Assembly (NCBI GenBank): GCA_963733375.1
Contig: CAVTDB010000026.1
Coordinates: forward strand, 192,001-256,000
Origin: Nitrospirota bacterium
GTDB lineage: Bacteria > Nitrospirota > JACRHJ01
DNA length: 64,000 nt
Direction of reading: 5' to 3'
Shown here: positions 1 through 33,076 of the stretch, one piece after another
Numbering within the stretch: position 1 is the stretch's first letter
Layout of the letters: each line of letters begins with the position of its first letter
Translations under genes and position numbers: made by a program
Notes under the pieces: generated by a model
Told to the model about the DNA's origin: nothing
Seen by the model: only the letters and a program-made list of their open reading frames with translations
Database searches by the model: none

Positions 1-549
1 GTTCTTTATCCCCATCGGCCCAAGGACATCGGGTACGCTCATGAGGCCCGCCGGGTTCGGCGCCGCGCCCGGTACGCCCGTATTCGTCGCGCAGGAGCCT
101 ATCGCCACGACGGCGGCGGCCTTCGGTGCGGCCTCCTTGACAATGTCTATAAAATCCTTGCCATGAATGGTGCCGTAGCCCTTTTTGGAAGGCATGGAAC
201 CCTCGATGACGAATATGAACCCGCCCTTGTCCACCGCGTTATGGAAATTTTCCTCCGCCTGATCGCCGGCCGCGGCCATAACCGTATCATTGAAATCAAG
301 ACTGATTATGTCCAGTATTATCTCGGCGGGGCCAGGGTTTTTGGCCTTGATGAACATCTCGGTGCAGCCGGAGTCGCAGGCCAGGGTCAGCCATACGACG
401 GAGGGCCGCTTTGCAGCGGTAGTCACGGCCTGAGCGATTTGAGGTATGTATGCCTCGGACAGCCCCAGGATAGCGGCGGTGGCGCCGCAGAACTTGAGGA
501 AGTCTCTCCTCTTCATGTGTTTTAGGGCATTCTGTGAATTGCTCCGCAT
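1..549 (-). CDS. [NiFe]-hydrogenase small subunit, Tat-exported (5' part; runs off window start)
   Basis: Manual translation (absent from ORF track): MRSNSQNALKHMKRRDFLKFCGATAAILGL...RPSVVWLTLACDSGCTEMF...VIEGS...VAIGSCAT..GVPGAAPNP. Twin-arginine RRDFLK signal and group-1 small-subunit motifs; AAGGA RBS upstream. Confidence 0.92.
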   Translation of the reverse strand, partial: MRSNSQNALKHMKRRDFLKFCGATAAILGLSEAYIPQIAQAVTTAAKRPSVVWLTLACDSGCTEMFIKAKNPGPAEIILDIISLDFNDTVMAAAGDQAEENFHNAVDKGGFIFVIEGSMPSKKGYGTIHGKDFIDIVKEAAPKAAAVVAIGSCATNTGVPGAAPNPAGLMSVPDVLGPMGIKN

Positions 550-7260: not shown

Positions 7261-8592
7261 TTATTCGTTTTTCAATATCCTCCAAAGGCTCGTCCGCGAT
7301 ATCCCCAATGCCTCCGCAGCCTTTGTTTTATTGCCTCCGAGGATATCCAGAACCTTTTCTACATAAGCCCGGTTCAACACCTCGATAGTCTTTATGTCAC
7401 CAGGTTCGAATGTATCAATCTGAAACATCTTTAGACTTTGCGGCAGGCTTTCCGGGGTTATCTCATGGCTTCTTTCAAGGATGGTCGCGCGCTCGATAAT
7501 ATTTTCAAGCTCGCGTACATTGCCCGGATATGTGTATTCTTTCAGAATTTTCATCGCTGCCTTGTTTATCCCGGAAATTTTCTTTCGGGATTTCGGCAGG
7601 TGCTTTTCGAGCAGGAACCTGGCGAGAGGCTCTATATCGTCCTTCCTTTCGCGAAGCGGCGGGATGAATATTTCCATCACGTTCAGCCGGTAGTACAAGT
7701 CCTCGCGGAACCTGCCTTCGGCAATGATAGACTTCACGTTCCGGTTGGTTGCGGCTATGAACCGGACATCGACGCTTACCGTCTTTGTCCCGCCCACGCG
7801 GTAAAACTCGCCCTCCTCAATGACCTTGAGTAGCTTCGCCTGGAGGCTGGGGGCCATTTCGGCAATCTCGTCTAAAAAAAGAGTGCCGGTGTTCGCAATC
7901 TCGACCAGGCCCTGCTTTTTCTTTACCGCGCCCGTGAAAGCCCCCCGTTCGTGGCCAAACAGCTCGCTCGCCAGCAGCTCCTCCGTAAGGGTGGCGCAGT
8001 TCAGGGACAGGAAGGGAGCGTCCTGTCTCCGGCTCGTATAGTGGATTATCTTGGCAAGGAGGCTCTTGCCTACGCCGGACTCGCCCGTCAGGAAGATGTT
8101 GCATTCCGATTCCTTCAGGCTTTCGATGGTCCTGAGGATCTCGTTCATGCTGGCGCTCTTGGCTATTATGGAAATCTTTCGCAGTTCGCTTGAGATGGTG
8201 CGGACAGGCAGGCTCTGCTTGATAAGCCCCTTCCGCTCGAATATCTTCCTGACCGTCGTAACCAGCTCGTCCAGCACGAAAGGCTTCGTAATATAATCCA
8301 GCGCTCCAAGCTTGATCGCCTCCAGTGCCGAATCAATGCTGCCGTAGCCGGTGATTATAATAACATCGACCTCCGGGTGTTTCTCTTTCACCTTGGGCAG
8401 CAAGTCAAGACCCGTCATCCCCGGCATTTTTACGTCCGCGATAAGAAGGTCGAAATCGCGCTCCTCGAGCAAAGCCCAGGCGTCCAGCCCGTTATATACG
8501 GACATCACCCTGTGGCCTTCCCTTTCCAGGGTGCTCTTCAAGTGCTTCTGCGTTATCTCCTCGTCCTCGGCTATCAGAATGTCATACGGCAT
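7261..8592 (-). CDS. Sigma-54-dependent response regulator (REC-AAA+-Fis HTH, NtrC family)
   Basis: DVKMPG receiver, GESGVGKS Walker A, GAFTGA, FLDEI, C-terminal KAAEALGISRTSLWR. Confidence 0.96.
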   Translation of the reverse strand: MPYDILIAEDEEITQKHLKSTLEREGHRVMSVYNGLDAWALLEERDFDLLIADVKMPGMTGLDLLPKVKEKHPEVDVIIITGYGSIDSALEAIKLGALDYITKPFVLDELVTTVRKIFERKGLIKQSLPVRTISSELRKISIIAKSASMNEILRTIESLKESECNIFLTGESGVGKSLLAKIIHYTSRRQDAPFLSLNCATLTEELLASELFGHERGAFTGAVKKKQGLVEIANTGTLFLDEIAEMAPSLQAKLLKVIEEGEFYRVGGTKTVSVDVRFIAATNRNVKSIIAEGRFREDLYYRLNVMEIFIPPLRERKDDIEPLARFLLEKHLPKSRKKISGINKAAMKILKEYTYPGNVRELENIIERATILERSHEITPESLPQSLKMFQIDTFEPGDIKTIEVLNRAYVEKVLDILGGNKTKAAEALGISRTSLWRILKNE

Positions 8593-10186
8593 TTATTTCT
8601 GTCTCCTGGATTTTCTTCGGCAATGTTATTTCAAACACTGCGCCGCCGTTTTTGTTGCCGGCCTTTATCTCCCCGCCGTGCTTTTTTACGATATTGAATA
8701 CTATCGCAAGTCCAAGTCCGGTGCCCTTGTCCTTGGTGGTAAAAAACGGCTCGAATATCTTTTCCAGGTGTTGTGGTGAAATCCCCGGACCAGTGTCCGA
8801 TACCGTTATCTTAACGGCGTCCGCCGCGTCCTGTATCATAACGGCCAGGTCGCCCTGGCCTGCCATTGCATCTATCGCGTTTGCGAAAGTGTTTATGAAT
8901 ACCCGCTCCATCTGGCCTGCGTCCACCGGGATAACACATACGGGCGGGGCCTCAAACCGAAATTTTATCCCTTCGCGGCCGTATGCGCTGGCAGTATTAG
9001 CCAGCCCATACGCTTCCCGTATCAGCGGCACGATATCCGTCGGTGCAAGCTTCGGCTCCTGCCCCCGGGCGAAATCCAGGAGGTCCCCGATTATTCCCTT
9101 CACACGCTCGGTCTGTCCTACTATGTCTCCGACTACCTCTTTTATCTTCGGCGGCGAATCATCGTTAACCAGTTCTGCGAGTACCTGCGCCGACAGGTAT
9201 ATATTGTTCAGCGGATTATTAAGCTCGTGCGCCACACCCGACGCAAGGGTGCCTATCGCGGCGAGTTTCTTATTCTGCATGAGTTCTTCTGTTTTCTTCG
9301 CAAGCTCCCGTTCCCTTTGCGCGAGCTCATTTTCCATCGTGTTAAACTTCTCTACCAAAACATCTACCTCGTCTTTGTGCGTGGGATCCGCAGGCATGAG
9401 CGGCACCCTCGGATAGACCCCCCTGCCGGTGTGCTCGACTACGTTTGTCAGCATCTCAAGCCTCAGAGTTACGCTGCTCAGGATCAAGAAAATCGACCCC
9501 AGGCCTATCAGAAGAAATAGCGGAAACACGATCAGCAGGGCGAGTTGCGAGAGCTTAATCGTGTGCTCGACCCTGTCCCTCGCCGCCTTGTCCAGTTCCT
9601 TGATGCTGTCTATTATATCCTCGCCTGTCTTCCGGAGCCCCTTGATATCGCCGTCTACCGCCTTAAGACCCGAGACAAGCCTCTCATTCGGCGGCAGGCC
9701 GGCATTCTTTGTCAGGTATTCCGAGCTTTCGAGGGGACGCTCCATGAAAGTCATCTCTATCAGTGGGATAGACTTTGCGTATTTTGAATTTGCCGGTTCT
9801 CTGTGCCGCTGCATCTCTCTGTCAAGCGAGTCAAGCGAAGCTTCAATGCGGTCGAATTGGTCCCTGTATTTCGCCGTCAGGGAGTGAAGCCTCAAAAATT
9901 GTCCTCCCGCGTACGTTCGCTTAGTCACCGATAGGGTACCCAGTATCTCCTTCAGATATCTGTGCACCTCGGCTGATTCCTCAGCCGACTTCTGCGGGCC
10001 GTACAGGAAGAAGTTCTTTTCATGCCTTCTTATCTGAAGAGATTTTGTCCGGAGGGTATCAGTCAGTTCAAGAAAGGTGATCTCGTTTCGCATCTGGATA
10101 AAATTAACATATTCGAAAATAACCAGAAGGGCGATAATGGACGCGCTGATTAGAAATCCATATGTTATCTTCTTTTTCAGGAACAT
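8582..10186 (-). CDS. Membrane sensor histidine kinase
   Basis: AHELNNPLNN, NAIDA, DTGPG, GTGLGL; periplasmic RRHEKNFFLY motif shared with the 3485-4889 kinase. Confidence 0.94.
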   Translation of the reverse strand: MFLKKKITYGFLISASIIALLVIFEYVNFIQMRNEITFLELTDTLRTKSLQIRRHEKNFFLYGPQKSAEESAEVHRYLKEILGTLSVTKRTYAGGQFLRLHSLTAKYRDQFDRIEASLDSLDREMQRHREPANSKYAKSIPLIEMTFMERPLESSEYLTKNAGLPPNERLVSGLKAVDGDIKGLRKTGEDIIDSIKELDKAARDRVEHTIKLSQLALLIVFPLFLLIGLGSIFLILSSVTLRLEMLTNVVEHTGRGVYPRVPLMPADPTHKDEVDVLVEKFNTMENELAQRERELAKKTEELMQNKKLAAIGTLASGVAHELNNPLNNIYLSAQVLAELVNDDSPPKIKEVVGDIVGQTERVKGIIGDLLDFARGQEPKLAPTDIVPLIREAYGLANTASAYGREGIKFRFEAPPVCVIPVDAGQMERVFINTFANAIDAMAGQGDLAVMIQDAADAVKITVSDTGPGISPQHLEKIFEPFFTTKDKGTGLGLAIVFNIVKKHGGEIKAGNKNGGAVFEITLPKKIQETEINAV

Positions 10187-10370: not shown

Positions 10371-10448
10371 TGGCGTCCCCCGGGGGATTTGAACCCCCGT
10401 CGCCGCCGTGAAAGGGCGGTGTCCTGGGCCAGGCTAGACGAGGGGGAC
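10371..10448 (-). tRNA. tRNA-Glu (TTC)
   Basis: Minus strand GTCCCCCTCGTCTAG...CCGCC CTTTCAC GGCGG...GGTTCAAATCC...GGACGCCA cloverleaf with encoded CCA. Confidence 0.96.
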
Positions 10449-10618
10449 GGGTTTTGGCGTGCAGGTAAATATACAGAAAGACATGACTTCCTGTCAAGCC
10501 ATATTTTTGAACGCCGGCAGGATTATTTAGCTGGACTTTTGGCATTTTCATTAATATAATCAAAACGCGTTTTGCGCCTCGCCCGGCAAGATACCCTTCC
10601 TTCGGGCAAGATAATTAT

Positions 10619-10633
10619 TGATAATTATTATCA
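10619..10633. promoter_or_regulatory. Fur-box-like operator
   Basis: Perfect 7-1-7 inverted repeat TGATAAT-T-ATTATCA, preceded by an extra GATAAT hexamer. Confidence 0.75.
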
Positions 10634-10680
10634 TTTCATGATAGGATTACAGAAACTGTAATTCTAATACGCGGAGAGCC

Positions 10681-11220
10681 ATGAGAAGCGTAATGGAAAT
10701 CAAAAAGCTCAATAAAAAAAACCCGGAAAAGGCTTCAAAACCCCGGAAAAAGGTGAAGCCGAAGGTGGACCTGTCTCTGATAGAGAAGGTGCTGGAGGGA
10801 ATAGACACCAATGCCAGGGACATATTCCTGCCGGTCCTGAGGCGCACCCAGGAAGTATATGGATTTATCCCGCAGGAGGCGGTTACGGAGCTGGCGAAGC
10901 GGCTTAAAACCACCCCCGCCCATCTTTATGGGGTAGCCACTTTTTACGACCAGTTCTCGCTCGCCCCGCAGGGGAGAAACGTCATCAGGCTTTGCACGAA
11001 TATGGCCTGCAACGTGAACGGGGCGGAGACGCTCCTTGGCTTGCTGCGAAGCAAGCTGAAGCTTACAAAGGGCAATACCACCGCGGACGGCAGATATACG
11101 GTTATCGAGTCCGAGTGCATAGGCTCCTGCGGGCGGGCGCCCGCGATGATGATAAACGACGACTTTCACTACGACCTGACTCCCCAGAAGATAGAAAAGA
11201 TACTGGCGAGGTATAAATGA
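10681..11220 (+). CDS. NuoE/HoxE-like [2Fe-2S] subunit
   Basis: VATFYDQF, CTNMAC...CIGSC thioredoxin-like 2Fe-2S motif. Confidence 0.92.
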   Translation: MRSVMEIKKLNKKNPEKASKPRKKVKPKVDLSLIEKVLEGIDTNARDIFLPVLRRTQEVYGFIPQEAVTELAKRLKTTPAHLYGVATFYDQFSLAPQGRNVIRLCTNMACNVNGAETLLGLLRSKLKLTKGNTTADGRYTVIESECIGSCGRAPAMMINDDFHYDLTPQKIEKILARYK

Positions 11221-12497
11221 GCAAGGTGCTCCTTAAGAACATAGACACTCCGAACAGCCAGGACATAGACGTTTACCTCTCGTCCGGCGGATACACCGCG
11301 CTGAAGAAGGCATACTCCATGACGCCCCGCGAGGTCACGGACGAAGTAATCAAGTCCGGCCTTAAAGGCAGGGGCGGCGCGTGGTATCCGGCCGGGAAGA
11401 AATGGGAAGTAAGCCTTGACATAGACAAGAAGCCGAAGTACTTAATCGCCAACGCCGACGAGGGCGAGCCCTGCACGTTCAAGGACCGGCCCTTCCTCGA
11501 GAAGGACCCGCACATGCTGATCGAGGGCATGTTGATCGCGGCCTACGCCTTTGGCGCGGAATTCGGCTACATCTATATCCGGGGCGAATATCCGGAAGGC
11601 GCGGAGGTATTGAACGCCGCCATAAAGCAGGCCGAAAAGAGGGGCTACCTTGGGAAAAATATTCTCGGCACGGCAAATAATTTTGAGTTGAAGGTTTACA
11701 GGGGCGCGGGCTCCTACGTATGCGGAGAGGCCTCGGCGCTTATCGAGTCTTTGGAAGGCAGGCGCGGACATTACCGCACCAGGCCGCCGTACATGGCCGT
11801 CGAAGGCGCCTTCTCCATGCCGACCGTGGTGAATAACGTAGAGACCCTGGTGAACGTCCCGCATATCATAGAGCGGGGCGCGGAATGGTTTGCCGCTATA
11901 GGCTCTCCGAAATCTCCGGGCCCAAAAATATTCAGCCTGAGCGGGAATGTGGAGCGGCCCGGCCTCTACGAGCTGCCGACCGGGATTACCTTGCGCGAAC
12001 TGATTTATAAACACGGCGGGGGTATCAGGGGCGGCAAGGAACTGAAGGCCGTAATACCGGGCGGTCTCGCTACTTCCGCGCTGACAAAAGAGCATCTGGA
12101 CGTCAGGATGGACGTGGACTCGCTCCGGGCGGTCGGGACTTCCATAGGCTCCGGCTCGGTCACCGTCATGGATGAGGACGTCTGCATGGTCCATGCGGCG
12201 AGACGGGCCGCGAAGTTCTTCTCTCACGAGTCCTGCGGCAAGTGCGCCCCGTGCAGGGAAGGCACCAAAAGGATGCACGAGCTTTTAATAAAGATAACGG
12301 ACGGGAAGGGCAAAGAGTCCGACCTGGAGCTTATGCGCGAACTGGGCGAGACGGTCCAGGGGACGGCGCTCTGCGGCCTGGGCGAGAGCTGCGCGAACTT
12401 CATCCTGTCCACCCTGAAATATTTCAGGCATGAATATATGATGCATATAAAGGAAAAGGCCTGCCCGGAGAAGTCATGCAAGGCCCTGGCGGTTTAA
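11217..12497 (+). CDS. NuoF/HoxF-like FMN/NAD-binding subunit
   Basis: SGLKGRGGA, NADEGEP, GAGSYVCGEASAL, ESCGKCAPCREG...C. Confidence 0.94.
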   Translation: MSKVLLKNIDTPNSQDIDVYLSSGGYTALKKAYSMTPREVTDEVIKSGLKGRGGAWYPAGKKWEVSLDIDKKPKYLIANADEGEPCTFKDRPFLEKDPHMLIEGMLIAAYAFGAEFGYIYIRGEYPEGAEVLNAAIKQAEKRGYLGKNILGTANNFELKVYRGAGSYVCGEASALIESLEGRRGHYRTRPPYMAVEGAFSMPTVVNNVETLVNVPHIIERGAEWFAAIGSPKSPGPKIFSLSGNVERPGLYELPTGITLRELIYKHGGGIRGGKELKAVIPGGLATSALTKEHLDVRMDVDSLRAVGTSIGSGSVTVMDEDVCMVHAARRAAKFFSHESCGKCAPCREGTKRMHELLIKITDGKGKESDLELMRELGETVQGTALCGLGESCANFILSTLKYFRHEYMMHIKEKACPEKSCKALAV

Positions 12498-12513
12498 GCC
12501 TTAAGGAGAGGCG

Positions 12514-13278
12514 ATGCACGAACTGATAATCGACGGAAAACCGGTTGCCTTTAATTCCGGTGAGACCATCCTCCAGGCGGCGAAGAAGGCCGGGATCTAC
12601 ATCCCGACGCTCTGCTGGGACGAAAGGCTGAAACCATCCGGCGCGTGCAGGATGTGCGTCGTGGAGGTGGAAGGCAGCCACAGGCTTGCCGCCGCCTGCC
12701 ACACGCCCGCGAGGAGCGGCTGGGTGGTGCATACGGCCTCGCAGAAGGTGCACGAGGCAAGGAAGCTCATAGTCGAGCTGATGCTGGCGTCGCACCCGGG
12801 CGAGGAGGAATGCTCCGACTGCGTGAAATGCGGCAGCTGCGTGCTCCAGAGCTGGGCTTACGCGTACGGCCTCCGGGAGCCGGCGATGCCGATGACCTGC
12901 CGCCACTGCGAGAAGCCATATTGCAAGGAAGTCTGCCAGAGCGGCGCGATAATAAAAAAGGGCAATGTCGTCTTTATCGATTATAAAAAATGCAACGGTT
13001 GCAGAGAGTGCGCGATGGTCTGCCCGTCCGGGATAATCATGTGGGACGGCAAGAAGATGACCGTCCGCAAATGCGACCTCTGCATAGATGAAACTTCCAA
13101 AGGCGGTCTGCCCGCCTGCGCCAGCGTCTGCCCGTCCGGTGCCCTGGAATTTGACGACATGGATGTCATAACGGGCCGGAAAAAGAAAAAGGCCGCGGAA
13201 AAAATCCGCACGGCGGCATTGGCAGGAAACTCCAAAAGAGGACAGGTAACGAGGGGACCGCATAGATGGCGAAAGTGA
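12514..13278 (+). CDS. Chimeric Fe-S protein: NuoG/FdhA N-terminal [2Fe-2S]+His-Cys3 domains fused to the C-terminal three Cys motifs of a HycB/HydN-type ferredoxin
   Basis: IPTLC..GACRMC..AC; HP..C..C.....C; then CRHC..PYC...C, CNGCRECAMVCP, KCDLC..PACASVCP. Confidence 0.85.
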   Translation: MHELIIDGKPVAFNSGETILQAAKKAGIYIPTLCWDERLKPSGACRMCVVEVEGSHRLAAACHTPARSGWVVHTASQKVHEARKLIVELMLASHPGEEECSDCVKCGSCVLQSWAYAYGLREPAMPMTCRHCEKPYCKEVCQSGAIIKKGNVVFIDYKKCNGCRECAMVCPSGIIMWDGKKMTVRKCDLCIDETSKGGLPACASVCPSGALEFDDMDVITGRKKKKAAEKIRTAALAGNSKRGQVTRGPHRWRK

Positions 13279-15748
13279 ACAAAGTTCTTTTTACGCACCC
13301 GGATAAATGCATAAACTGCAAGACCTGCGAAGACGCCTGCGCCGAGGCCCACGACGGCATATCCAATATCGAAGTGGTGGCCTTCCCGAAAAAAGGCAGG
13401 TTCGGCGGCGAGAACCACAAATATGAAACCGTCCTCACCGACCCCTTCATAGTCAGGGACAACAACAAGTGCGTGATGTGCGGCAAGTGCGTCCGCATCT
13501 GCCAGGAGGTCGAGGGCAGGGGAGTCCTGACGCTGTCCAACCGCGGTTTCGGGACAAAGGTGGAGCCCGCGTTCAACCTGCCGCTTAAAGAGACCGGCTG
13601 CAGTTTCTGCGGCCACTGCGTCTCCGTCTGTCCGGTCGGCGCCCTTGTCGAGAAAGATACATTTACAAAGGACCGTACCTGGCGCGATTTCCTGCTGAAG
13701 AAGACGGAGACCACCTGCGCGTACTGCGGCTGCGGCTGCGTTATGGAGATAAATTCCAAGGACGGGGTCATAGCCAAGATAACGTCGCTCCGTCGGCAAG
13801 GGTTCCAACAACGGGAGCCTGTGCGTCAAGGGGCGTTTCGGGTATGAGTTCGTGAACAGCCCGGACAGGCTCAAAATACCGCTCATCCGCACCAGTTCGA
13901 AAAAAGCCGCGCCGAAATTCCGGCAGGCGTCATGGGGCGAGGTCCTGAAGCTTATAGCGAAAAAGTTTTCCGCCGCAAAGAAGAAAAATCCCGATTCGTT
14001 CGCCGCGCTCTCATCCGCCCGCTGCACCAACGAAGAGAACTATATCTTTCAGAAGTTCGCCCGCATGGGGATGGGGACGAATAACGTCGACCACTGCGCG
14101 AGGCTCTGTCACGCGTCCACGGTAACGGGTCTCCTCGATGGCCTTCGGCAGCGGCGCTATGACGAACTCCATCGCCGACCTGGAAAATGCGGAGATAATA
14201 TTCGTCATCGGCTCCAATACCACCGAATCTCATCCCATAATCGGTCTTCGGATAAAGAAGGCCGTGCGGGAGCGGGGCGCGAAGGTTATACTCTGCGACC
14301 CGAGGAAGATTGAGCTTGCCGATTACGCATCTATATGGATGAGGCAGAAGCCCGGCACGGACGTTGCCCTGCTTAACGGGTTGATGAACGTCATCGTCCA
14401 CCAGCACCACCAGAAGCACAGGTCGTTCATAAAAGACCGGACGGAAAATTACGAAGAATTTTATAACTCGATAAAGGATTTCACTCCGGAGATGGCATCC
14501 GAAATTACCGGAGTCCCTGCCGAGCAGATCCGCAATGCCGGGACCATGCTTGCGCGTTCAAATGCCGCGTGCTTCGTCTATTCCATGGGCATCACCCAGC
14601 ACACGACCGGCGTTGACAACGTCCTCTCCGTGGCTAATATCGCAATGCTTACCGGCAACATCGGCAGGACCGGGACGGGAGTCTATCCGCTCCGGGGCCA
14701 GAACAACGTGCAGGGCGCATGCGACATGGGCGCGCTCCCTAACGTTTATCCCGGATACCAGAACGTCGCGGATGCGGCGGCGAGGGAAAAGTTCGAGAAG
14801 GCCTGGGGGACAAAGCTGCCCGAGGCGCCCGGCCTTACAGTCACCGAGATAATGGACGCCGTTTCGCACGGGACAATAAATACCCTGTATATCATGGGGG
14901 AGAACCCGGTGCTTTCCGACCCGGACTCAACCCATGTGAAGAAGGCGCTCAAGAAGGTGGACTTCCTGGTAGTGCAGGATATATTCCTGACCGAGACGGC
15001 GCAGCTCGCGGACGTCGTCCTGCCCGCGTTCTCATGGGCGGAGAAAGACGGCACTTTCACCAATACGGAGCGGCGCGTCCAGCTTGTCCGTTCGGCTATA
15101 CCGGCGCCGGGGGAGGCGAAGGCGGACTGGGAGATTGTAAAGCTTATCGCGGAAACGATGGGGCTCGCCGGATTTAAATTTAATGCCGCGCGCAACATAT
15201 TCCGCGAAATGGCGACCCTCACGCCTCAGTACGCCGGCATGGGACATGGGAGGCTGGAGGAGACCGGCGGACTATGCTGGCCGTGCCCGACGCCGGACCA
15301 TCCGGGGACGCCGATACTTCACACGGAGAAATTCACGCGGGGTCTCGGCAAGTTCCACGCCGTGAGTTTCAGGCCGCCCGCCGAAAACCCGGACAAGGAA
15401 TATCCCTACCTCCTTACGACCGGCAGGATACTCCAGCATTACCATACCGGCACTATGACGAGGCGCGTCGGGGGCTTAAACCATATCGTCCCGGAGGCGT
15501 TTGTCGAGATAAATCCGAAAGACGCCACAAAATTGAAGGTAGGCGAGGGAGATTTTCTGAAGGTTGCGTCGCGCCGGGGCGAGATAAAGATAAAAGCGCG
15601 GGTCACCGAGCGCGTGACAAAGGGAGTAGTATTCATACCCTTCCATTTCGCCGAGGCGTCCGCGAACGTCCTGACCTCGGCCAACGTGGACCCGCTGGCG
15701 AAGATACCGGAGTACAAAGTCAGCGCGGTAAAGATCGCGAAGGCATAA
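13266..15748 (+). CDS. fdhF: Formate dehydrogenase alpha subunit (Mo/W-bisPGD, Cys-type) with N-terminal ferredoxin motifs; apparent frameshifts at ~13790 and ~14137
   Basis: KTETTCAYCGCGC, LCVKGRFG, SSARCTNEENY, CARLCH (TGT Cys, not Sec), PLRGQNNVQGACDMG, EKDGTFTNTERR, IPEYKVSAV. Confidence 0.9.
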
Positions 15749-15768: not shown

Positions 15769-15800
15769 AGGGGCCGACCGCAGTGTCGGCCCTTTCTTAT
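15769..15800 (+). terminator. Intrinsic terminator after fdh operon
   Basis: AGGGCCGAC-CGCAGT-GTCGGCCCT hairpin followed by TTCTTATTT. Confidence 0.75.
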
Positions 15801-15856: not shown

Positions 15857-16714
15857 ATGGACGAAATAGAAAAAAGAGTCCGTGACGCCCTCGATGCGGA
15901 TACGGACGGCATCGGCAAATTCCTGAAAGACCCCTCCGACAAGGTCATCCTCTCGCTGCTCGCTAACCGCAATATTAACGAGGAACACCTGGTCGTCCTG
16001 GCGAAGAGGCGAGATTTGGCCGGCGTCATCCTGGAAGCGGTGGGGGCAAGGAAATTCGGGCCGGAGGGCTACCGGGTAAAGCTCGCGCTTGTCACGAACC
16101 CGAAGACTCCGAGGCGGATGGCGCTTTCTTTCCTGAGAGATTTAAGGCTGCGGGATCTGGGGTTCGTCACGCGGAATAAGGCGATTCCCACCGAGCTCAG
16201 GCAGGCCGCGGAGGGGATAATAAAAGAGAAGCTTCCAATGCTGCCGCCGGGAATAAAAATATCCCTTGCCAGGCAGGTCTCGGAAGAGGTGGTGAAGTAC
16301 CTGCTTGCCGAGGGAAACCCGATGGTGGTAAAGGCGTGTTTTGAGAATACCATGATGAATGAGGCGGTGGCGCTGTGGGCGATAAACCATAAAAAAACGC
16401 CGCCGACCACGATAGAAAATATCTCGGCGCATCAGAAATGGTCCGCGTATAAATCCGTCAGGTTCGCGCTTTCACGGAACCCGCTTACGCCAGTTGAGCG
16501 GGCGATTGAATTCGTGCGGGGGATGAACTCGTTTGACCAGCGCTACCTGTACAATGACCCGTCGGTCCCGGCAGCCGTAAAGGTGCAGGTGGAGATAGAA
16601 CTCGAAAGGAAGGGACAGCCGCTGTTTCCGCCGAATGAGGCGGGGAGGGTGATAGGCGTGCCGGAGCCGCCGGAAGCGCCGGAAGCGCCGGAAGCGCCGG
16701 AAGAAGAGGAATAA
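15857..16714 (+). CDS. Conserved hypothetical alpha-helical repeat (LRV/DUF2336-like) protein
   Basis: Repeated LVTNPKTP / LSRNPLTP / LYNDPSVP units; acidic PEAPEA tail from a 9-bp tandem repeat. Confidence 0.65.
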   Translation: MDEIEKRVRDALDADTDGIGKFLKDPSDKVILSLLANRNINEEHLVVLAKRRDLAGVILEAVGARKFGPEGYRVKLALVTNPKTPRRMALSFLRDLRLRDLGFVTRNKAIPTELRQAAEGIIKEKLPMLPPGIKISLARQVSEEVVKYLLAEGNPMVVKACFENTMMNEAVALWAINHKKTPPTTIENISAHQKWSAYKSVRFALSRNPLTPVERAIEFVRGMNSFDQRYLYNDPSVPAAVKVQVEIELERKGQPLFPPNEAGRVIGVPEPPEAPEAPEAPEEEE

Positions 16715-19549: not shown

Positions 19550-20627
19550 ATGATACCTGCGATAGAATGGAAGGACGGAAAAGTCTGCATGCTGGACCAG
19601 ACGAAGCTTCCCGGCGAGGTGGCTTACGTGGACTGCACGGACTATATTACCATAGCAAAGGGCATTAAGGAGCTTTGGATACGCGGCGCGCCCGCTATCG
19701 GGATTGCCGCGGCAATGGGGGTCGCGCTTGCGGCGAACGATATAGAGGCGAAGGATTTCGATAGCTTTTACCAGAAATTAATGCCTGCATGCGACCACTT
19801 AGCCGCCCAGAGGCCGACCGCCGTCAACCTCTTCTGGGCGATAGACAGGATGAAGCGCTTTGCTCTCGCGCACCGCGACGCGGGCGTAGATAAGGTAAAG
19901 GAGTTGCTGGCCCTTGAAGCCCAGAAAGTACTCGAAGAGGACGTTAAAATAAACCGCGCCATAGGGGAGTTCGGCGCGGGGTTCATCCGTGACGGTGATA
20001 CCATACTTACCCACTGCAACGCGGGTTCGCTGGCTACCGGAGGATACGGGACCGCCACCGCTCCTATCCGGGTGGCCGTGGAGCAGGGGAAAAAGATAAA
20101 GGTATTTGCGGACGAGACGAGGCCGGTGCTTCAGGGCGCCAGGCTTGACCGCCTGGGAGCTAATGCAGGACGGCATAGACGTGACCCTTATCACGGACAA
20201 TATGGCCGGCTATTTCATGAAGAAAGGCGAGATAGACCTGGCTATAGTGGGGACGGACAGGACGGTACGGAACGGGGACGTGGCGAATAAAATCGGCACT
20301 TATACCGTCGCCGTCCTTTGCAGAGAGCACGGGATACCTTTTTACGTCGCCGCGCCGACCTCGACGATAGACCTCTCCATGCCGTCCGGCGAGCACATCC
20401 CGATCGAGGAAAGGCCCCCCGGCGAAGTTACCGACATCTGCGGGAAGCTCTGCATTGCGCCTCTTGGGGTAAAGGTAAAGAACCCCGCCTTTGACGTAAC
20501 TCCGGCTAAATACATAACGGCCATTGTAACGGAGAAAGGGGCGTTCAGGCCCAGGGATATAAGGAAGCTCGGGGACGGCGGGATAGACCTGGACAAGGTC
20601 AGGATCAAGCGGGAGGGCGGTTCGTGA
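19550..20627 (+). CDS. mtnA: S-methyl-5-thioribose-1-phosphate isomerase (frameshift ~20148)
   Basis: [62 protein letters not shown]. Confidence 0.93.
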
Positions 20628-25485: not shown

Positions 25486-25705
25486 ATGATTCGAAGAGGT
25501 GAAGCGGCATACCGGTGTTCTAATCGAGGCCGTCGAGCACAAGATTGATATTGTCATTGAAGGTGTAATGGGGGTGAACGAGAGGCTGGACAGGCACGGC
25601 TGAAAATAAGCAGGAGCACTCCCGGCTGGAGAAGATGACGCTTGTCAACCTGGCCGACATTCAACGCTGGACCAGCGGGTGGGCGGATTGGAAGAGAAAA
25701 TTTAA
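25486..25705 (+). pseudogene. Small coiled-coil hypothetical gene with several indels
   Basis: GGAGG RBS; stitched translation ..EEVKRHTGVLIEAVEHKIDIVIEGVMGVNERLDRH..EHSRLEKMTL..LDQRVGGLEEKI*; may be intact given assembly error rate. Confidence 0.55.
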
Positions 25706-26590
25706 CCAGAGTAAGCCTTGACCGCAAGCTTACATTTCATCGAAGCCCATCTCTGAAACGGGGGTGGGTTTTTTATTAACGATGAGTTGAGGCACGGAAC
25801 AGGAAGAGATTAAGAGACAAAAAATATGATGTTTCCTGATTTTTCATGGAAATAGTTTCTTCTATCCATTTATGTATTATGTTATTAATTTAAGCAGGAT
25901 TTCTAAGTACATCGAATACTCACTAAACAGGAGCGGTAGATGGACATGTCCGGCGGAAATACATTATGAAAAAGGGAAGCGACGGAAATGCGAAGCTATT
26001 TTAAGGAAAGCGGGAAAATAGTTGAATGGCTAAACGGGCAGTTATAAATTCGTTAAAAAAATATCTTAACCTGCTCCGCGAAAACGGTTTGCCTGTTACG
26101 GGGGGAGTTTTGTATGGAAGCTATGCGCGCGGAGAGGAAACTCCTGATAGCGACATAGACCTTCTCGTGCTTTCGCCGCTCTTCGACAAGGACAAGCGTG
26201 CAATGGTGGGAAAGATGTGGGCGTTGGCCCGGCTTATTGACATAAAGATCGAACCGGTGCCGGTCGGGGAGAAACGTTATGAAACAGACAACGTTTCACC
26301 GTTTCTTTTGATGGCGCGGAAGGAAGGAATATTCCTGCGGGTTGACGAAACGAAAGAAAAAGTGAAAGCTTCATAAAATTTAGGAAGACTGGAAGTAAAA
26401 TCATCCCGTCATTAAAATATGGGATGTGGCCCTCAAAGCTGGACCAGCGGGTGGGCAGATTGGAAGAGAAAATTTAATCAGAGCAAGGCTTGACCGCAAG
26501 CTTTCATTTCATCGAAGCCCATCTCTGAAACGGGGGTGGGTTTTTTTATTAACGATGAGTTGAGGCGCGGAACGGAAAAGGGTATTAAAG
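25661..26590 (+). repeat. Direct repeat C (~155 bp; copies ~25661-25816 and ~26433-26590) flanking the MNT gene; its 3' 40-bp sub-repeat B also occurs at ~25131-25172
   Basis: GCTGGACCAGCGGGTGGGC.GATTGGAAGAGAAAATTTAA...AAGCCCATCTCTGAAACGGGGGTGGGTTTTTT..TAACGATGAGTTGAGGC in both copies. Confidence 0.93.
26026..26376 (+). CDS. Minimal nucleotidyltransferase (MNT, pol-beta fold)
   Basis: LYGSYARGEETPDSDIDLLV signature, 116 aa. Confidence 0.9.
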   Translation: MAKRAVINSLKKYLNLLRENGLPVTGGVLYGSYARGEETPDSDIDLLVLSPLFDKDKRAMVGKMWALARLIDIKIEPVPVGEKRYETDNVSPFLLMARKEGIFLRVDETKEKVKAS

Positions 26591-26623
26591 CCGAAAATTT
26601 TCTCTAATAGAAAGGAGAGAACT

Positions 26624-32401: not shown

Positions 32402-33076
32402 ATGAAAAAAGTAATAGTCGCCATAGACGGCCCTTCGGGGGCCGGGAAGAGCACTGTCGGCAAGATGCTCGCGAAGGAACTGGGCTACCTCTATATAGAC
32501 ACCGGGGCCATGTACCGCGCAATCGGCTTGAAGGCTGTCCGCGAAGGTGTCGAGCTGAAAGAAGGGGACGCCCTCCGGAGCTTTGCAGAGGACGGAAGTG
32601 CAGACTTGTTCAGGCGGATGGCGGGTGTCAAGGTATATCTGGATAACGAAGACGTAAGCGAAGCGATCCGCACGCCGGAGATGGGCATGGTAGCATCCGC
32701 CGTATCCGCCCAGCCCTGCGTCCGGGAGAGGCTTCTTGAGCTTCAGAGGAAACTGGGCGAGGGCGGCGGGGTAGTGCTTGAAGGGCGCGATATAGGGACG
32801 GTGGTCTTCCCCGATGCCGAGGTGAAATTTTACCTGGACGCGAAGGTGGAGGAAAGGGCGAAGCGGCGCTGGCTGGAATTCCAGTCGAAGGGGATGGAGG
32901 CGGACCTTAAGACAACGATCGAAGACGTGGCGAAGAGGGACTACGACGACAGCCACCGTGAAATCGCGCCGCTGAAAATAGCCGAGGGCGCGGTAGTCGT
33001 GGACAGCTCCGGGCTGGGAATTAAAGAAGTGGTGGCCCTGATGAAGAAGAAGGTGCTGGAAGTTGCCGGGACCTAA
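32402..33076 (+). CDS. cmk: Cytidylate kinase
   Basis: AIDGPSGAGKST, DTGAMYR, EGRDIGTVVFPDA. Confidence 0.96.
   Translation: MKKVIVAIDGPSGAGKSTVGKMLAKELGYLYIDTGAMYRAIGLKAVREGVELKEGDALRSFAEDGSADLFRRMAGVKVYLDNEDVSEAIRTPEMGMVASAVSAQPCVRERLLELQRKLGEGGGVVLEGRDIGTVVFPDAEVKFYLDAKVEERAKRRWLEFQSKGMEADLKTTIEDVAKRDYDDSHREIAPLKIAEGAVVVDSSGLGIKEVVALMKKKVLEVAGT

Follow-up and report, generated by a model that had tools for sequence, protein, structure and literature searches.

Here, we analysed a stretch of 64,000 nucleotides (nt) from the genome of a Nitrospirota bacterium (assembly GCA_963733375.1, contig CAVTDB010000026.1, positions 192,001 to 256,000 of the forward strand), hereafter the window, and in particular an operon that, judged by its gene content, is that of an NAD-linked, molybdenum- or tungsten-dependent formate dehydrogenase (FDH), with a nuoE-like gene, a nuoF-like gene and an fdhA that is distributed over two genes, A and B. 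The two parts of fdhA are each joined to a part of what appears to be one HycB/HydN-type ferredoxin. The features of the operon, numbered from the first letter of the window, are the following.

10532-10560 and 10618-10647, plus strand: promoter-like sites ahead of the nuoE-like gene
10681..11220, plus strand: nuoE/fdsG-like [2Fe-2S] subunit, first gene of the operon (Pfam 2Fe-2S_thioredx, 5.7e-46; NCBIfam NuoE NF005722, 148.5 bits against a cut-off of 141)
11217..12497, plus strand: nuoF/fdsB-like subunit for flavin mononucleotide (FMN) and NAD(H), 426 amino acids (aa) (Pfam Complex1_51K, SLBB and NADH_4Fe-4S only; NCBIfam NF010120, 424 bits against a cut-off of 389)
12514..12882, plus strand: gene A residues 1-123, the N-terminal NuoG-like module of FdhA (Pfam Fer2_4, residues 4-76, and NADH-G_4Fe-4S_3, residues 83-122)
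12883..13158, plus strand: gene A residues 124-215, ferredoxin cysteine groups II-IV (Pfam Fer4_11, 4.4e-20)
13159..13249, plus strand: C-terminal tail of gene A up to the stop codon TAA (13247-13249) of the sister genomes, aligning with the tails of the stand-alone ferredoxins P0109 and P0232
13251..13257, plus strand: Shine-Dalgarno-like GAGGGGA, 8 nt 5' of the ATG of gene B (13266), by sequence reading
13266..13385, plus strand: gene B residues 1-40, ferredoxin N-terminus with cysteine group I (C15, C18, C21, C25)
13386..15748, plus strand: remainder of gene B, with the 2x[4Fe-4S] domain, the Mo-domain [4Fe-4S] and the bis-molybdopterin guanine dinucleotide (bis-MGD) catalytic domains of FdhA (Pfam Fer4_Nqo3, Molybdop_Fe4S4, Molybdopterin, Molydop_binding)
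15769..15794, plus strand: terminator-like hairpin of 10 pairs (7 G-C) with a T-rich tail, 21 nt 3' of the fdhA stop

The nuoE-like gene, the nuoF-like gene and gene A lie on one strand, with an overlap of 4 nt followed by a gap of 16 nt, and the putative terminator marks the end of the operon. Adjacent genes for NuoE-like and NuoF-like diaphorase subunits, both matched above curated cut-offs, are a feature of NAD-linked FDH of the FdsABG type. In sister species of the same genus (G001, G002), gene B is a single gene of 826 aa, which in the source assembly falls in three frames; the gene B of a sister species whose operon DNA is 97% identical to the window scores 877.9 bits on TIGR01591 (cut-off 666.25), as an FDH alpha subunit of the FdhF/FdsA type. 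In the alignment with the solved F420-dependent FDH 9t1s_L, the active site, ...NNVDHCARLCHAST..., corresponds to ...nnvdhcarlxhsatv..., its Cys pairing with the non-standard residue X; it contains the Cys/Sec metal ligand followed by His, equivalent to Cys386/His387 of the Rhodobacter capsulatus FDH in the accessible text of PMC7171172. Outgroup FdhA genes (L013, L015; genomes G029, G037) carry an in-frame stop codon at this position (...HCARY-stop-HSSTV...), which would fit selenocysteine; in the present clade, the residue is Cys.

The solved R. capsulatus FdsABG(D) (PDB 6TG9/6TGA) follows the same operon logic of NuoE-like, NuoF-like and FdhA subunits, and its FdsA has the same set of cofactors, namely, a [2Fe-2S], a His-ligated [4Fe-4S], 2x[4Fe-4S], the Mo-domain [4Fe-4S] and bis-MGD. 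Indeed, chain 6tg9_A aligns to residues 10-824 of gene B (E 6.9e-191) and 4-226 of gene A (E 2e-22), so that both the catalytic part and the neighbouring genes identify the enzyme as an NAD-linked FDH like FdsABG. However, FdsA is one polypeptide without a HycB-type module, whereas the chain of the present enzyme is interrupted by a four-cluster ferredoxin; the NuoG-like N-terminal module and the catalytic domains are not united on one alpha chain in any of the 3 genomes of the source genus or in the metagenome contig L037.

What interrupts the chain can be read directly from the two genes. Residues 1-123 of gene A, colinear with residues 1 to ~120 of single-chain orthologues, contain the [2Fe-2S] site and the His-ligated [4Fe-4S] motif H94-x5-C100-x2-C103-x2-C106-x2-C109, and the insert begins 14 residues past this motif. 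The open reading frame (ORF) at 12514-13278 reads ...LQSWAYAYGLREP / AMPMTCRHC...KCDLC...CP and that at 13266-13847 reads MAKVNKVLFTHPDKCINCKTCEDACAEAH...IEVVAF / PKKGRFGGENHKY...DPFIVRDNNKC (slashes denote the junctions), the latter matching Pfam Fer4_Nqo3 and the start of Molybdop_Fe4S4. Canonical orthologues from the same family read ...YGLWGPAAAPKPGRFEGERHRY..., uninterrupted through the insertion site. An initial annotation of the window had recognized here a permuted HycB/HydN-type ferredoxin inside fdhA, forming two reciprocal fusion genes; the peptides that it quoted lie exactly at their positions, and its proposal is borne out by the canonical sequences and by colinear profile matches. 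The stand-alone ferredoxin P0109 (169 aa) aligns through residues 2-40 to residues 5-43 of gene B (BLASTP with the gene B N-terminus, E 4e-8) and through residues 42-154 to residues 124-235 of gene A. Similarly, hhalign comparison with nine stand-alone ferredoxins matched residues 5-37 of gene B (E 6.2e-10, probability 96.6%) and 124-239 of gene A (E 6.2e-42), and the two matches occupy consecutive, non-overlapping template columns. In the solved WorS chain 9mqx_E, residues 3-28 match residues 6-31 of gene B and residues 46-146 match residues 123-228 of gene A, and the best solved matches of the gene B N-terminus are the first motifs or N-termini of HycB4, HycB3, WorS and Escherichia coli HycB. 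All sixteen Cys of the four groups are present, 12 on A (group II, C129, C132, C137 and C141; group III, C160, C163, C166 and C170; group IV, C187, C190, C202 and C206) and 4 on B, but the groups do not follow each other in the order I-IV on one chain, II-IV being on A and I on B; Fer4_11 covers residues 125-215 of gene A with 72.2 bits (cut-off 26.2). The ribosome-binding site that had been attributed to gene B is likewise in place. Collectively, the alignments support the presence inside fdhA of a whole, circularly permuted HycB/HydN-type four-cluster ferredoxin gene.

Given the quality of the source assembly, a metagenome-assembled genome (MAG) of 2.39 Mb in 26 contigs that is 81% complete, this arrangement might be a chimera in which a piece of a ferredoxin gene was misjoined into fdhA, or the two ORFs might be artefacts of an error-prone MAG. 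The assembly is certainly poor: 11 of the 22 long ORFs of G002 fall in more than one frame in the window (the 22 probably include one shadow frame opposite gene A), and genes A and B themselves contain three 1-nt insertions. Nevertheless, the same fusion junctions, which the initial annotation had proposed to seek in independent genomes, are present in the separate assemblies of two other species, G001 and G002, where gene A (244 aa in a 247-aa open frame; 95% and 94% identical, respectively) is followed by the 826-aa gene B, and in L037, with gene A at 340-1062 (76% identical) and gene B from 1070. Furthermore, we compared the stretch with public contigs from four sequencing runs (X1-X4) belonging to four studies. 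Junction 1 (~12880) is bridged by contigs in 4/4 runs and junction 2 (~13390) in 2/4, with X1, X3 and X4 having no contig cover over parts of the stretch, and a single X2 contig of 2,696 nt spans all of 12400-14300 at 97% identity. Synonymous divergence (dS) across the junctions ranges from 0.09 to 1.6 with a low ratio of nonsynonymous to synonymous divergence (dN/dS), which shows that the arrangement has long been inherited. Thus, misassembly, named at the outset as the finding that would overturn the proposal, fails as an explanation, and a chimera is exceedingly improbable. The split arrangement is real and is inherited in a small clade of peat and wetland Nitrospirota. Expression of A and B as one chain by read-through or fusion can be dismissed: in G001 and G002 as well as in L037, the two genes differ in frame, and in the former two a TAA and 16 nt separate them.

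The split form is confined to few lineages. Within the taxonomic order, 8 of the 12 species genomes have an orthologue at E <= 1e-40; the split form occurs in 3/3 genomes of the source genus and the canonical single-chain FdhA in 4/5 genomes of one genus (G006, G008, G009 and G010; open frames of 909-934 aa), the remaining orthologue being the single-chain form of G005 described below. In a collection of 5.8 billion proteins, the gene A architecture is represented by 6 full-length clusters and 1 fragment among the 120 matches listed, of which the next one is 41% identical and of the HoxU type. Among 1.84 billion representatives at 50% identity, 4 proteins match at E <= 1e-30, only one of them spanning the whole query, and the architecture makes up a single 50%-identity cluster; P0123 (1405 aa), third among the representative matches, was disregarded, as it lacks Fer4_11 and consists of two FdhA-like units in tandem. 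A degenerate DNA signature of junction 1 retrieved 2 records, both from the sister species, among one genome each of 185,579 species, and L037 was the sole relevant locus in a metagenome scan with N-terminal peptide patterns, which ordinary FdhA and NuoG genes saturated. A search for relatives of gene B with its first 60 residues returned one cluster only (P0121), the partners of P0003-P0006 lying on contigs of <= ~3.6 kb, too short to include them. The ESM Atlas has no entry for gene A of G002 or for P0003. The view of the initial annotation that no described enzyme has this architecture agrees with a full-text literature search, judged at the level of result lists and excluding supplements, which retrieved no description of a split or permuted FdhA-ferredoxin.

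Compared with G002, the 5.4-kb operon contains five indels, three of which are private 1-nt insertions in genes A and B, as follows.

13238, plus strand: an extra G, absent from G001 and G002 and from X2, the sole run covering the site (1/1)
13788, plus strand: gene B frameshift 1, absent from G001 and G002 and from X2, X3 and X4 (3/3 runs with cover)
14137, plus strand: gene B frameshift 2, absent from G001 and G002 and omitted in contigs of X1, X2 and X4

In the fourth run, one contig ends at 14136/7 and a second one lacks 14043-14135. The extra G at 13238 prolongs the ORF of gene A to 13278, adding 10 false residues and a false overlap with gene B, and the apparent end of gene B at 13847/13850 results from the shifts of frame at ~13788 and ~14137, beyond which FdhA runs on to 15748. 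Accordingly, the gene limits in the initial annotation have to be revised: gene A has 244 aa and stops at TAA (13247-13249), 16 nt before gene B, which has 826 aa and does not end at 13847/13850. Isolated 1-nt indels outside homopolymers, relative to G002, occur all over the window (for example, at 20144, 21713, 28036, 29544, 32563-32820 and 43319). Because the assembly is full of such errors, the end of gene B, the tail of gene A and the A/B overlap are best regarded as artefacts, the three insertions being probable assembly errors. The insertions could instead be real mutations in a decaying pseudogene, following destruction of fdhA by the insert, and their distribution, with three frameshifting insertions inside 900 bp of genes A and B and zero in the 1.8 kb of nuoE and nuoF, would fit such decay. 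However, genes A and B are intact in the sister species with dN/dS of 0.04-0.19, the same sort of isolated indel is spread over the whole window, splitting half of the long genes, and each insertion is missing in every run that covers its site, so that decay of the locus is very unlikely. More generally, broken genes of this MAG need to be compared with G001 or G002 before they are interpreted.

The divergence between the corrected genes shows what has been maintained. The 9 gene A sequences (68% to 98% identity) share all 12 Cys of groups II-IV, and the 4 Cys of group I are invariant in 4/4 gene B sequences. The dN/dS is 0.13-0.19 for groups II-IV, 0.04-0.20 for group I and 0.06-0.13 for the FdhA segments, at dS of up to 1.6. 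The split genes and the 16 ferredoxin Cys are thus kept under purifying selection.

These observations suggest a mechanism. The insert occupies the FdhA loop that connects the His-ligated [4Fe-4S] motif to the 2x[4Fe-4S] domain and consists, in this order, of groups II, III and IV, the tail, a stop codon, a spacer with a ribosome-binding site, a start codon and group I, yielding polypeptide A (244 aa), with the FdhA N-terminal module and groups II-IV, and polypeptide B (826 aa), with group I and the rest of FdhA. In the DmsB/FdnH/HycB fold, three Cys of group I ligate one cluster and the fourth reaches over to the cluster of group IV, which in turn lends one of its own Cys to that of group I. 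Because groups I and IV ligate in this reciprocal 3+1 manner, A alone would complete only the clusters of groups II and III, and neither chain alone could complete those of groups I and IV. Group I of B and group IV of A would jointly ligate two [4Fe-4S], as these groups do in every single-chain member of the fold; the ferredoxin would then fold across the chains and staple the two halves of FdhA together. From this sequence pattern, we strongly infer that two [4Fe-4S] clusters are shared between A and B. The pair would hold one [2Fe-2S] and eight [4Fe-4S] clusters, compared with one and four, respectively, in canonical FdhA.

Known ferredoxin modules of this type differ from the present one in their wiring into the partner. 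WorS of WorABCSL (9MQX), HycB3/HycB4 of the hydrogen-dependent CO2 reductase (HDCR; 7QV7), HycB of the E. coli formate hydrogenlyase (7Z0S) and FdhB of the Desulfovibrio FDH (6SDR) share the four Cys groups and the Fer4_11 core, but each of them is a separate single chain with the order I-II-III-IV, whereas here the module is built into both halves of FdhA. In complex I, the His-ligated cluster N5 of NuoG feeds the clusters N6a and N6b of NuoI. By analogy, a ferredoxin-type string here would continue from the His-ligated cluster of a NuoG-like module, although NuoI is a separate two-cluster subunit of a membrane complex. The accessible text of PMC12318220 describes HycB-type ferredoxins joined with NuoG-like or FdhF-type catalytic partners in WorABCSL and HDCR and, in WorABCSL, HycB-type strings that plug into the NuoG-like subunit. 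For R. capsulatus FDH, cluster A4 (His117/Cys121/Cys124/Cys130), the His-ligated cluster of FdsA, is placed outside the path from bis-MGD to FMN, ending at the dimer interface, in what is accessible of PMC7171172; in the split enzyme, the ferredoxin starts 14 residues past the corresponding motif. Given that the insert follows a cluster that is off the path in that enzyme, it is plausible, though less certain than the sharing of clusters, that the four-cluster string extends the side arm into an extra electron port. In the most elaborate version, which we consider possible but doubtful, a single-step permuted integration made a three-port enzyme out of a two-port NAD-linked FDH: the ferredoxin would refold across the chains around two inter-chain [4Fe-4S] and would extend the otherwise dead-end His-ligated cluster into a four-cluster wire exchanging low-potential electrons with a third partner, such as a ferredoxin, a hydrogenase or another module.

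A relative with a re-fused gene is informative on both the function and the history of the insert. Genome G005 encodes a single-chain FdhA of 978 aa (P0122) with an in-frame insert at the same site, reading ...YDLCEPAGKPDCASCESQACKTVCQKHS...CDNCRQCAMVCRYG...EKMVMRGMPASKKKVNRFEGERHEY..., that is, with groups II and III in frame but without group IV, the tail, the stop and start codons and group I. Identity to gene A is 61% over residues 1-186, the insert being homologous to groups II-III, and the split form P0006 is the partner of G005 in the phylogenetic tree (support 91/87). The enzyme thus shares its insertion site and groups II and III with the split form but is one polypeptide with two extra clusters. 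Because groups I-IV and the tail of the split form are colinear with free-standing ferredoxins, the simplest reading of G005 is secondary loss: an in-frame deletion would have removed group IV, the stop, the start and group I, re-fusing the gene and leaving a two-cluster insert, and the clusters thereby lost would be precisely the two to which groups I and IV contribute. As to the origin of the split form itself, what was inserted, in a single event, was probably a unit that bridged the boundary between two ferredoxin genes in tandem, or else a circularised copy. Inversion between oppositely oriented genes was ruled out by reasoning alone, its products being expected to be convergent and distant rather than adjacent and co-oriented. 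The motif of the His-ligated cluster shows a further peculiarity, an additional invariant Cys (C106; H-x5-C-x2-C-x2-C106-x2-C, 12793-12840) in 9/9 split sequences, a count that is not phylogenetically independent. Its counterpart is missing in the canonical genus (C-KA-C-AKDGD-C) and in G005 (C-AD-C-ARTGR-C), so that C106 co-occurs with ferredoxin groups I and IV.

The re-fused gene also lends itself to a different view of the split enzyme, in which the split is real but the ferredoxin pieces stay apart: A would carry a two-cluster insert (II+III) with a vestigial group IV, group I of B would be idle or would bind a cluster with other ligands, and the halves would be held together by native FdhA contacts only. 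That G005 retains just groups II and III in one chain, so that this half appears to be a self-sufficient unit, speaks for such an arrangement. It is at odds with the invariance of all 8 Cys of groups I and IV across lineages that are 68-98% identical, with a dN/dS for group I that is as low as in the catalytic parts, and with the rule, common to DmsB, FdnH and HycB, that groups I and IV each need a Cys of the other for a cluster. We therefore regard separate ferredoxin pieces as unlikely, if less so than decay of the locus.

Taken together, the sequence data make it probable that a permuted ferredoxin splits fdhA, that the ferredoxin is shared across the two chains and that the frameshifts are assembly errors. 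Several observations weigh against this interpretation. In the source MAG, the fdhA gene is formally broken, and no RNA run is among those listed as containing the stretch. The form found in G005 is a singleton in the 5.8-billion-protein collection and comes from one MAG contig of 6.4 kb; moreover, it shows that the FDH manages without groups I and IV, which makes the shared clusters dispensable. In the unconstrained tree, whose backbone is poorly supported, the canonical genus falls among the split forms (77/94), and grouping all insert-bearing rows costs 0.17 log-likelihood units (approximately unbiased test, p = 0.50); the insert may have been lost from the canonical form or may have arisen just once, and the test fits both. 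Finally, BfuB of the bifurcating-type BfuABC has an N-terminal [2Fe-2S] domain and a C-terminal 2x[4Fe-4S] domain according to the accessible text of PMC12318220, and Pfam detects neither of these extra Fe-S domains in the 426-aa NuoF-like protein, which also lacks the 2x CxxCxxCxxxCP domain in which outgroup NuoF-like homologues end. With such a NuoF-like subunit, nothing points positively to bifurcation.

Several features surround the operon. The gene for a [NiFe]-hydrogenase small subunit (Oxidored_q6) lies at the edge of the window (1-549, minus strand), ~10 kb from the FDH operon, and that for the large subunit just outside the window, upstream in the contig and split over two frames in the assembly. 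Divergently upstream of the operon are genes for a sigma-54 response regulator and a histidine kinase (7261-10186, minus strand), which could be its regulators, and a gene for tRNA-Glu (10371-10448) is located between these genes and the operon. Downstream, 15857-16714 (plus strand) encodes a 285-aa protein with a PEAPEAPEAPEEEE tail and without Pfam or NCBIfam matches, preceded by a promoter-like site of its own; the same gene follows fdhA immediately in the genomes of the split genus, G005 and canonical G008, the sole canonical genome examined there. Further along, 25609-25816 and 26434-26591, ~800 bp apart, both match one stretch of G002, which suggests a local repeat, and a CTTGACCG motif recurs at several intergenic sites of the window.

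The split form is conserved and rare, and the mechanism proposed for it is attractive, albeit unproven. The annotation labels 'NuoG-like / (2Fe-2S)-binding protein' and 'formate dehydrogenase alpha' conceal that neither gene is complete alone. If our interpretation holds, A and B would be a natural protein pair joined by Fe-S clusters that are half-ligated by each chain, and the pair would have arisen from a complete gene, stop and start codons included, that was inserted into a loop of another gene. Insertion in circularly permuted form would add a domain without in-frame trimming and would thus represent a natural 'gene-in-gene' route. With zero, four and two extra clusters, respectively, the canonical FdhA, the split form and the re-fused form would make up a graded natural series that is well suited for studying how extra cluster strings alter the choice of partner and the bias of CO2/formate enzymes.

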